From an uncultured bacterium (lineage in GTDB: Bacteria; Babelota; Babeliae; Babelales; RVW-14), in assembly GCA_963759805.1 (NCBI GenBank), contig CAVXAT010000001.1:1-64000 (forward strand): a DNA stretch of 64,000 nt, written 5' to 3'. The notes beneath the pieces are model-generated. The model saw only the letters and a program-made list of their open reading frames with translations, did not search any database and was not told the origin of the DNA. A program made the position numbers and the translations under genes. Every line of letters starts with the position of its first letter. Position 1 is the stretch's first letter. Below, one piece after another: positions 1-4,103 of the stretch.

Positions 1-493
1 TAGTGTCATAAAAAATTATTGGCAGGCAATCTGCTGTTAAAACTCCGATGCCAATATTTTTTTGATTTGTGATTAAAAAGTCGCCAACAAGACTGAATAA
101 TGTTTTCTGAACTGCTTTTTCAAAAGTCTTTTGCTCGCATCCTTCGACAGGCTCCCAGCCTTCGCTTGGGATAGCTTCCGCCGTCGCATCTGAAATGCTA
201 TGGCGGACACGGTCGGCGGGCACGGCAGGACGATCCTTCGACAGGCTCAGGATGAGCGGATTAAGTAGGCGCGCTCGTGGTGAGCTTGTCGAACCATCAC
301 CCTTGGGTGACGCGCCAGGCTCCGGGAGAAGCCCAATATAAGTTCCGGCAGTACCGTGGACCTGTTCTGAGAAAATTATTTTTTTGAGCTCATGCTTTTG
401 AGCCAGTTTATTACAAAACCCCTCGAACTCTTTTGATTTATGACTGACGGTGCAATTACTTTTGTCCCCGAAAAATATTGTGAAATTAAACAT
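1..493 (-). CDS. pgeF: PgeF/YfiH (laccase-domain, purine nucleoside phosphorylase-like) protein, 5' part, running off the window; contains an in-frame palindromic-repeat insertion
   Basis: Hand translation from ATG 493 is stop-free to the window edge: MFNFTIFFGD...EQVHGTAG...GDFLITNQKNIGIGVLTADCLPIIFYDT. QVHG and TADCLP are YfiH family motifs. The start overlaps the tsaC stop. Confidence 0.85.
   Translation of the reverse strand, partial: MFNFTIFFGDKSNCTVSHKSKEFEGFCNKLAQKHELKKIIFSEQVHGTAGTYIGLLPEPGASPKGDGSTSSPRARLLNPLILSLSKDRPAVPADRVRHSISDATAEAIPSEGWEPVEGCEQKTFEKAVQKTLFSLVGDFLITNQKNIGIGVLTADCLPIIFYDT
140..300. repeat. Composite of nested palindromic repeats (families A and B) inside pgeF
   Basis: ccttcgacaggctc...caggacga, tccttcgacaggctcaggatgagcg, cgctcgtggtgagcttgtcgaaccatc and ccgccgtcgc...gctatggcgg all recur elsewhere (13286, 22829, 30893, 47599). 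Confidence 0.85.
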
Positions 494-1226
494 CTTTAAT
501 TTTCCCCAAAATTTTTTCTAAGTCTTGTATTGAGTATGCGCCTTCTCGTACGACGCGAACTTGATCTGTTTGCGAAGCATCTAGATGCGAAGCATCCAAA
601 ATTGTTGATGGTTTACCATCCATAGCTATGAGCCCATAGGGCGAAAGCGAAGGATGGCTTTCGGTGCTCTTCTGTTCTTTGTCATCTACCAGATATGCCA
701 CTTGTGATGCGACTTGTTGATCAACAGAATCAATTGTAATTGGGGCAACTTCAAAACTTGTGTTGGCACTTGTTGAGTACAGTCCATTGAAATGTTTTAA
801 TACTGCCAGCAACGGAGTGTAATTTGGGCAACGGATTGCCATCGTTCCTTGCTCTGATTTTAAAAAATTAGGGAGTTCTTTTTTTGCTTTAAAAATAATA
901 GTCAGTGGCCCGGGCCAAAGTTTAGTAACCAATTTTTGGATTTGCGGGTTAGGCTGTTGGGTTTGTTGCTGGATAAGTTTGGTGTTAAATTGTTGCGTGT
1001 CAACGAAGTAATCCAATTTACTTACATCAGAGATCAGGATGATATATGGCTTGTTTTGCCGGCCGCCCTTGATCTTGTTTAGTGACTCAAAGCTTTGTTC
1101 AGTTGTGTTGGCAAGAAATCCCGGAATTGTGTCTGTGGTTGTTATCAAGACTTTGTTGTCTTGCAGGGCTTTTATTATTTTATTTTCTGTGTCCGGATCT
1201 TGCCAGTAAATAACCGGTTTAATCAT
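486..1226 (-). CDS. tsaC: Threonylcarbamoyl-AMP synthase (Sua5/YrdC/TsaC)
   Basis: TDTIPG, KGGRQNKP, LWPGPLT, AIRCP, STSAN, PSTILD and VVREGA motifs. Confidence 0.9.
   Translation of the reverse strand: MIKPVIYWQDPDTENKIIKALQDNKVLITTTDTIPGFLANTTEQSFESLNKIKGGRQNKPYIILISDVSKLDYFVDTQQFNTKLIQQQTQQPNPQIQKLVTKLWPGPLTIIFKAKKELPNFLKSEQGTMAIRCPNYTPLLAVLKHFNGLYSTSANTSFEVAPITIDSVDQQVASQVAYLVDDKEQKSTESHPSLSPYGLIAMDGKPSTILDASHLDASQTDQVRVVREGAYSIQDLEKILGKIKDV
616..657. repeat. 42-bp family A palindrome inserted in frame in tsaC
   Basis: 40/42 identical to 13335-13376. Confidence 0.9.
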
Positions 1227-2583: not shown

Positions 2584-2831
2584 AGGACACTTTCGTTAAT
2601 GGTTGTTTATCTATCTTACCCCGCCTAACTTTAGTGTCCACTTCTATTAAACCACATCAAGCCGCCTTCGCCAAGGCTTCGACGCCCACGTACGTTTTTT
2701 TTGGCCGCTCGCCCTGAGTGCGCACGCAGTGCGCGTATCGAAGGGTGCGGCCTGCAAAAAACACTCACCACAGCCTGCCCGCCATAGTGATTGTGTTAAA
2801 AGTCAAAACTTTTTTTAAAAATTTTCGAAAA

Positions 2832-3766
2832 TTAAACTTTACATAACTCGCCTCTTTTTAACAGCGAATTGGCAAGAATAATTAGTTTGCGCATAACGGC
2901 AACTATGGCCACTTTGAACGGTTTTTGATTTTTTATCAAGCGATCATAAAAGGCTTTAAGAATTAGGTTATGTTTAATGGTTGTTAATGCGCACATGTAA
3001 ATCTGATTTCTCGGGGTCATCCGTCCTCCCGAATTCTTCTCTTACCCTTGAATTTACCGCTTTCATTGTCATATGGACACACACCAACAAGAGCCGATAT
3101 TTTATTGTTACTTATTGTTCCAAGCTCTGGAACATGTGATAAAAGAAGAGCTGCAGAGGCAATTCCAATTCCAGGTATAGATTCTAAAATCTCAGCTTTT
3201 TGACCAAGTTCGCTATCGTTTTTGAGTAAGCCAGATATTTGCGTATCTACCGTCTTGATTTCTGCGGTAAAAATTTTAATCAAACGTTTAATGCTCGGTA
3301 AACTCATTGCATGTGAAGGTTGCTTTAATCTTGTTTTTTCCGCAGCCAAAAACTTGGTAAGATCGTTTTTACGATTAACGAGAGCTTGCAATTTGGCTTG
3401 ATTCTCAGTTTTTTCAACCGTCGAATAGCCACGCGTATTTTTAGAACAAAATTCAGCAATTTTTCGTGCATCAATTTTATCGTTTTTGCTTTTGCATCCA
3501 GTTGAAACAATAAAACCCCTTATTCGCCTCGGATCAATAATCCAAAGGTTGTAGCCATTCTTTTTTAGCAGCGTTGCAAGCAGCTTTTCATATCCTCCTG
3601 TTGCTTCACATGCTATTTGTGCAATATCTTGCTGGGCTATTTTTTTAATGAAACCCTGTATCGCAGCTTCTGTGTTGTCTATTTTTAAGAGTGTTTTTTC
3701 AGGATAAATGCAAATATCTAAGCTGTTTTTAGAAATATCGACGCCTACATATATATTTGATACCAT
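2832..3766 (-). CDS. IS110 DEDD recombinase, frameshifted near 3025 (ORFs 3017-3808 and 2832-3020)
   Basis: GVDISK, ACEATG, KNDKID, SIPGIG, NESG and AIVAVMRKL motifs. One extra G in cgggagga restores RIRGGRMTPR. Likely start is ATG 3766. Confidence 0.9.
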
Positions 3767-3771
3767 AACGA

Positions 3772-3915
3772 TTACCTCTGGCTTGTAAACATGCGAGATC
3801 GTACCCAATACGTCTCAAGTGATTGTTCGAGGTTGTTTAATGTAAGTTGATAGTCTCAAACTATGGCACGATCCCTTATGATCAGCTCGAGCACGAGATC
3901 TATCAACTTCCTTGA
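3772..3915 (-). ncRNA. Putative IS110 bridge RNA with target- and donor-binding loops
   Basis: Two stem-enclosed internal loops. Guides acaatcact and tacaag match the circle junction, and gccatag matches the right half of the target. Ends are approximate. Confidence 0.8.
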
Positions 3916-4103
3916 ACAATCGATATTAAAAAAAATAACTCTGGAATAAAGTTAATAAAATTCTTATTTATTTAATAGATTTCTAACATACAAGCCATGA
4001 GCGAAGCGAAGGCGACGGCTGGGAGCGGGCAAGTTTGGGTACTTTAATTACGCAGAATGGTATAAAACATATACAACTCAATTTACCAGAAAAATTAGAA
4101 ATA

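Follow-up and report, generated by a model that had tools for sequence, protein, structure and literature searches.

The pgeF locus and its coding repeat block

The window, a stretch of 64,000 nucleotides, comprises the first 64 kb of contig C1 of assembly G000 (1.50 Mb in 21 contigs, 89% complete). The tsaC gene (486–1226, minus strand) is followed on the same strand by an ORF that runs from 493 to 2, encodes 164 aa and is still open at the window edge. It represents the 5' two-thirds of the cell-wall editing gene pgeF (yfiH), whose family is characterised by UDP-MurNAc-monopeptide amidase activity. Position 1 of the window is also the first base of the contig; pgeF is truncated by the assembly, and breakage of the gene is not shown. 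An earlier note had described an unlisted ORF from 493 to the edge with YfiH motifs and an unbroken frame, a description with which the ORF itself, the frame of the peptide and the family matches all agree: PF02578 matches residues 136–164 with 32.5 bits against a cut-off of 22.9, and the fragment also matches TIGR00726 (PgeF). In YfiH the active site is described as lined by His71, Asp89, Cys107 and His124 (PMC8844914). The window allele retains the equivalents of the first three as H46, D138 and C156; that of His124 falls past the contig end and is present in the second copy of the gene, on contig C16.

Several further features surround this locus. A frameshifted, near-identical 3' half of the same PgeF (P0076) is located on a separate 4.5-kb contig, and its frameshift may be a sequencing error. 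The tsaC gene (minus strand) also has two additions at 616–657 and 564–593, an A-type hairpin in frame and a tandem duplication of 15 bp, both of which are present in C16 and absent from a contig of sequencing run X1. Upstream of tsaC, an IS3-family and an IS110-family element (1285–2659 and 2786–3995) are both situated inside a repeat cluster, which in C16 is uninterrupted at the IS3 site.

Between the motifs QVHG and GDFLIT the pgeF frame passes stop-free through a GC-rich block (61% G+C as opposed to 32–36% in the flanks). The open frame alone is weak evidence because 11% of shuffled versions of the block stay open as well, and it is the genome-wide pattern that carries the argument. The block greatly extends the protein. 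The spacing between the QxH and ADC motifs amounts to 110 residues in the window allele compared to 48 in C16, and it is 39–48 residues in 110 of the 114 measurable PgeF homologues (120 sequences were surveyed, of which 6 were not measurable, and two outliers of 30 and 56 residues are mis-picks of the pattern). None of these orthologues thus has an equally long loop.

The block corresponds to a composite element at 334–122 on the minus strand, which is 213 bp long and provides 71 stop-free codons (residues 54–124). The limits of 136–320 that had been proposed for it fell short, as the composite extends on both sides to worn terminal inverted repeats, but the block itself is real. Its left terminal repeat (318–334, minus strand) matches an insertion sequence (IS) end, discussed below, at 9 of 17 bases and is offset from the core by the same distance as in better-kept copies. 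The element starts at 334, right after the ATT codon of Ile53 (335–337, minus strand), which is the likely target triplet and left target-site duplication and at which the identity with C16 ends; the right target copy is missing. The worn right end (122–135, minus strand) agrees with the IS end at 5 of 17 bases without gaps, or at about 10 of 14 by eye if one codon was lost. Its origin is ambiguous, since the stretch 119–136 is also identical at 17 of 18 bases to sequence next to a different repeat cluster, at C1:304144. Host codons resume at 99–121 (minus strand); they are shorter than, and diverged from, the loop of C16 and have the length of a 42-residue loop type found in some relatives, not that of the 48-residue loop of C16.

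The core between these ends begins with a small terminal hairpin (about 296–316, without assigned strand) that is recognisable from sequence, folding and the alignment of copies. The remaining units are annotated on the plus strand. They include a B-type hairpin unit identified by comparison with other copies and inverted with respect to B1 and B2 (269–298), an extra intact B unit termed B2 (234–259) that accounts for a net gain of 21 nt over the common form, and the B1 unit spanning 134–233. B1 is split into 134–154 and 227–233 by an A-type hairpin (155–226; 36 bp without its passenger), which in turn is split into 155–177 and 214–226 by an inner hairpin of 36 bp, A' (178–213), that is found only in this copy among the 18 aligned. 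Unit-by-unit comparison with the other copies bears out the claim of five or more repeat units, and the three levels of nesting described earlier were correct to within 1–2 bases, but a fourth, outermost level had been missed. The 183 bp at 134–316 are the sum of a 90-bp base core, the 36-bp A module, the net 21 bp of the extra B unit and the 36-bp A' module. In most copies the lengths of the A module and of the base core are divisible by three, which makes it probable that much of the composite was already assembled on arrival. Successive insertions filtered for frame in place, as the earlier note envisaged, are therefore only part of the story.

The empty allele and the insertion site

Contig C16 of the same assembly ends with a second tsaC–pgeF pair that is free of the repeat and encodes a complete PgeF of 241 aa (146.9 bits on PF02578; 137.1 on TIGR00726, just below the cut-off of 141.15). 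C16 shares 97% identity with the window over 334–1284 and 99% over 1–98, and between these two regions the 235 nt at 99–333 of the window stand in place of 49 nt. The net result is a gain of 62 codons, close to the 60 or so that had been reported as inserted in frame, yet it reflects the replacement of 49 nt and not a clean insertion. The empty form is also found in two sequencing runs from other studies, X1 and X4, the contigs of which connect 98 to 334 via 49 letters. The filled form was not seen in other assemblies or runs, where no contig bridges the insert junctions and uncovered parts are uninformative; the four DNA runs compared shared only 0.05 of words. An interpretation of C16 as the excision scar of the insert was rejected, as the C16 loop matches that of uninserted relatives.

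The end of C16 and the start of C1 form a dovetail overlap, similar near-identical overlaps occur at other contig ends of the assembly, and relatives have one tsaC–pgeF locus located beside the gene that follows on C1. This suggests that the two copies represent two strains at one locus, a duplication being the less favoured alternative. Upstream of the insert C1 and C16 differ at only 13 positions in 860 bp, whereas the worn ends of the element are far more diverged. Together with the host codons that fit the 42-residue loop type, this leads us to infer that the insertion is old and was carried on a small recombined patch, with local hypermutation as the alternative; the insert would probably be older than the 1.5% flank divergence from C16 and would have travelled or persisted on that patch. 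The host codons beside the insert also differ more than a simple insertion model predicts, which speaks against such a model. A separate cluster of 15 differences in 47 bp distinguishes window 379–425 from C16:22433–22479 within DNA that is otherwise 98.5% identical, and it is probably a recombined patch in C16. The idea that these differences compensate for the insert was discarded because X1 has an empty loop, yet only 3 differences from the window there.

In a profile alignment, counted from the His motif, Ile53 aligns with Leu78 of enteric YfiH, and the insertion site corresponds to residues 79–85. This segment is described as a loop exposed to solvent, and in the E. coli YfiH crystals two chains show it disordered (PMC8844914). 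The tolerant loop that had been postulated for the insert can thus be equated with the 79–85 loop, which in the orthologues is not extended. In the AlphaFold2 model the block means of pLDDT lie between 41 and 65 for residues 61–130 and between 81 and 92 for the strands and helix of the host fold, low values being expected for unaligned sequence and no proof of disorder, while the empty PgeF of C16 models at 95. The insert is likely to be translated as a floppy surface loop, and it is probably neutral. A repeat of this kind is found in frame at one of three loops in 9 of 43 pgeF loci (one of the nine being the window and two sharing one sequence), and the relatives L025 and L079 carry independent B-type inserts in the same loop as the window.

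It is unlikely that the window allele, although the insert is real, has lost its function or become redundant, be it as a second copy or as a strain variant on which selection is relaxed while C16 does the work. Such a scenario would account for the two copies within one assembly and the heavy change in the codons beside the insert, and it is compatible with the two IS elements just upstream on C1 and with a 3' third of the gene that lies past the contig end. In addition, pgeF is dispensable in E. coli, and a search of 41 genomes failed to find it in 2, so that a dead allele could persist. However, the dovetail overlap and the single tsaC–pgeF locus of relatives favour alleles of one locus, neither the frame nor the visible catalytic motifs have been damaged by the several layers, and normally essential genes such as alaS and prs contain the same composite. 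A start of C1 that is an assembly chimera, with a repeat copy joined into pgeF, is highly improbable: a contig edge in a repeat-rich MAG is where such a join might be expected, but neither of the junctions nor the inner A' layer occurs elsewhere in the genome, the reading frame is kept, and independent in-frame inserts occupy the same loop in other assemblies.

Frame conservation and the outer shell

G000 contains 18 two-anchor copies of the composite, 14 in open frames and 4 between genes. The 14 coding copies all share one frame and are all multiples of three (12 lie in genes with a named family and 2 were assigned by ORF length only, and 2 of the 14 are C-terminal extensions), whereas two of the four intergenic copies are not multiples of three, and in three of the four different Pfam families are found on either side. 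This genome-wide count is in support of the earlier proposal of in-frame insertion with frame retention, reminiscent of the Rickettsia palindromic elements (RPEs). The frame in use is stop-free in 15 of the 18 full shells, the exceptions being intergenic, and one reverse frame is open in 7 of the 18 and never used. All 18 copies, the intergenic ones included, have the same orientation as their host or flanking genes. When all repeat types are considered, 51 of 130 clusters are flanked on either side by 25 or more codons of a frame that runs through them without a stop, some of those near N-termini possibly preceding the true start, and 30 of 36 long host frames have a named family, including alaS, proS, dnaE, murD, uvrC, mnmA, prs, tkt and gpmI. 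No disrupted genes were seen among the five intergenic cases checked. The insert peptide matches only 1 of 34 family relatives at E ≤ 0.001, and this exact composite is therefore narrow in range.

Among individual host genes, one frame of 501 codons in G000 (L134, C5:100126–101628) joins a histidine-phosphatase domain to LptC with a copy of the composite in between. An in-frame copy is also found in a TrmD-like gene of G002 (L216, C2:61700–63800; named from its sequence, without a family scan). The LigD, DprA and ComEC genes of G000 (L116, L122, L150) each contain an in-frame repeat; end joining and competence could be the cause of worn ends and of patchy alleles.

A 17-bp inverted repeat marks the ends of many composite copies. 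This end motif is present in 32 of 151 genomes of the order, against at most one match per strand for a reversed control. The relative G081 has 10 inverted pairs of the motif spaced 913–914 bp apart, and the element that they delimit measures 914 bp between the outer motif bases, has terminal repeats of about 18 bp and encodes a split transposase (HTH_Tnp_4 and DDE_Tnp_4/DDE_Tnp_1) in two frames that overlap at an A-run. It is a putative member of the ISL2 group of the IS5 family, the comparison with ISCaa2 and ISCaa3 of Amoebophilus asiaticus being one of size and layout. Like the G081 element these ISL2-group elements are approximately 0.9 kb in length (916 and 914 bp) and contain two ORFs, with a −1 shift; no direct repeats are listed for them, in contrast to the 3-bp duplication found here (PMC3196728). 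Identical ANT triplets flank all 21 IS and miniature copies examined (11 long and 10 short) and represent a 3-bp target duplication, and this comparison of flanking triplets replaced an initial reading of the target as an IS630-like TA duplication. Two of the 18 copies in G000 keep AAT on both sides. Matches to the ends of the G081 IS reach 15–16 of 17 bases within the subfamily, and in several coding copies the left end retains only 5–6 of 17.

The composite fits the description of a miniature inverted-repeat element (MITE) in that it is short (213 bp), contains no transposase and is dispersed in 18 two-anchor copies across G000. Unlike complete IS5/ISL2 elements, the window element thus has no transposase of its own, and its ends are worn. 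The block is likely to be a non-autonomous miniature transposon with IS5-type ends. The query used to look for the matching transposase gave no match in G000, a genome that is 89% complete. Frame-keeping appears to be a property of this subfamily and not of the shell, because the 10 short shells examined in relatives, which have different contents, include a single one of frame-keeping length and none inside a long open frame. A search for a second shell family that could account for the right end gave only single matches in 6 of 34 relatives and no repeated family. Y1/RAYT transposases were also considered as movers and dismissed, as none of the five Y1 matches in G000 is bracketed by these units on inspection.

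An origin without any transposon shell, in which recombination or a repair event triggered by a nuclease brought in a copy of the hairpins and overwrote host codons, and in which the IS likeness is residual or due to chance, is quite improbable. It would explain the replacement observed in place of a clean insertion, the weak end matches, the 17 of 18 bases that the right end shares with another repeat-adjacent stretch and the cores that in some copies are far better kept than the ends (in prs, 89/90 for the core and 13/32 for the ends). However, the point at which identity with the empty allele breaks off lies exactly 18 bases from the core anchor and right after the ATT triplet, and the same junction geometry is seen in copies with 13–15 of 17 matching end bases. 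Splicing, bypassing or any other way of disregarding the block at the RNA level, which the earlier note had offered as an alternative, has next to no likelihood. The RNA of the block can fold into stacked hairpins (folding of the whole block only modestly beats that of shuffled sequences, with z −2.16 and 6 of 200 shuffles folding equally well), and the common orientation of all 18 copies would suit an RNA element. However, comparison with Rfam gave no family, the one match being at chance level (E 0.59). Furthermore, module sizes vary freely in steps of three, and the single frame kept in 14 of 14 coding copies would be superfluous if the block were removed.

Coding palindromes and the turnover of their modules

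Taken as a full mechanism, a MITE-like in-frame insert in pgeF that carries nested hairpins, resembles the RPEs and is accommodated in an exposed loop is the explanation we regard as probable. It is proposed that a transposase acting in trans would place a shell of 3n bases at an ATT codon; the frame would be kept because the shell length is combined with a 3-base duplication, and only the reliably stop-free frame would survive in genes. Insertions would persist where the protein has an exposed loop. The ends of the shell would subsequently wear away, while inner hairpin modules would be gained or exchanged. The probable route for this is recombination among copies, for which small GIY-YIG nucleases with the same hairpin on their flanks may have provided the trigger.

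The pattern is likely to reflect the habit, known from Rickettsia, of selfish DNA residing within proteins, in this case accompanied by a candidate transposase. RPE-1 to RPE-10 are described as palindromic repeats that are found in frame in many unrelated Rickettsia housekeeping genes, and like the present composite they are 100–200 bp long, occupy a small genome, add a conserved peptide and are found at surface-loop sites (Ogata et al. 2000, 2002, as summarised in PMC10969869, PMC3767692 and PMC3733652). Repeat clusters encoding 43–82 residues have also been reported (PMC3733652). RPEs nevertheless belong to a different phylum and differ in sequence from the Babeliales composite: the RPE1 model TIGR01045 gave no match in G000 at E ≤ 1 (in a search without a positive-control genome), and the RPE models in NCBIfam gave none on the pgeF insert. 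In contrast to RPEs, the composite consists of several layers (shell, B, A, A'), can be matched to an autonomous IS, is associated with a target duplication the size of a codon and varies in its inner modules between species at one site. The ends of RPE-1 may resemble this shell.

The CGTC- and GTAG-tagged REPs and BIMEs are likewise hairpins that form dimers or clusters, some of them intragenic and in frame, but they are characterised by tags that the B and A units do not carry as such (Di Nocera et al. 2013, PMC3733652). The CGTC-type repeats are stated there to lack a dedicated transposase, and six strings from the repeat family studied here had no match in the four text supplements of that paper (PMC3733652). 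A literature search, mostly outside supplements and subscription papers, found no description of this repeat family in Dependentiae.

On the question of how coding palindromes such as RPEs move and keep the frame, this analysis contributes several parts that can be put to the test: a seemingly intact IS that shares the ends, a target duplication of codon size that accounts for the retained frame, one gene in both a filled and an empty allele, and a nuclease that is a candidate mover of the inner hairpins. In-frame palindromic repeats as such were already known from Rickettsia and other bacteria; what this analysis adds is the matching autonomous IS, the ANT target equal in size to a codon and the filled/empty pair. 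A 1.5-Mb genome with such peptides in about thirty named genes also matters for the annotation and the protein phylogenies of the phylum.

Inserts were compared in four genes across three genomes. In fcl, the shell and its site are the same in G002 but the inner modules differ; in mvk one insert is shared; in mnmA an unrelated repeat occupies the same loop in G002; and the gpmI inserts are not shared. The cores of the coding copies average 88% identity to the consensus, module differences included, and reach 99–100% in three copies, compared to 66% for the ends.

In G000, inverted B-type hairpins enclose two small GIY-YIG genes, and CGTC-type hairpins enclose a third. Homologues of the gene at C1:266297 (27, found in 35 family genomes) have a B hairpin on both sides in 15 cases, on one side in 5 and on neither in 7, and the density of B hairpins is 3.3 hits per kb near these homologues as opposed to 0.27 per kb far from them; the link is one of co-location only, between kin that are not independent. 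The small GIY-YIG nuclease is therefore put forward only as a candidate second mover, responsible for the inner hairpins. The arrangement is comparable to that of the Ssn nucleases with their NTS/SRM hairpins, single-domain GIY-YIG proteins of approximately 95 aa that are bracketed by inverted dispersed hairpins (Chenal et al. 2025, PMC11893778). The published SRM pattern has 0 matches in window 111–345, and the typed pattern has 2 in the genome as a whole, so it may be too strict. It is possible, though doubtful, that old shells kept in frame in essential proteins serve as permanent landing pads in which a branch of small GIY-YIG nucleases other than Ssn adds and swaps hairpins, the loops evolving by module exchange. 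If this were true, two cooperating selfish systems would drive the evolution of loops in Babeliales, which may also explain the coding palindromes of Rickettsia.

The small GIY-YIG genes themselves are diverse. The B-bracketed nuclease and the CGTC-bracketed small GIY-YIG protein of the same genome share only 31% identity over 81 aa. In the relative L079 (2300–2750) a small GIY-YIG gene with CGTC-type hairpins on both sides is positioned between tsaC and pgeF. At C18:49169 and C5:3782 of G000, two more small GIY-YIG genes directly follow tRNA genes that have A-type hairpins after them, and a third nuclease branch may thus be associated with the A family.
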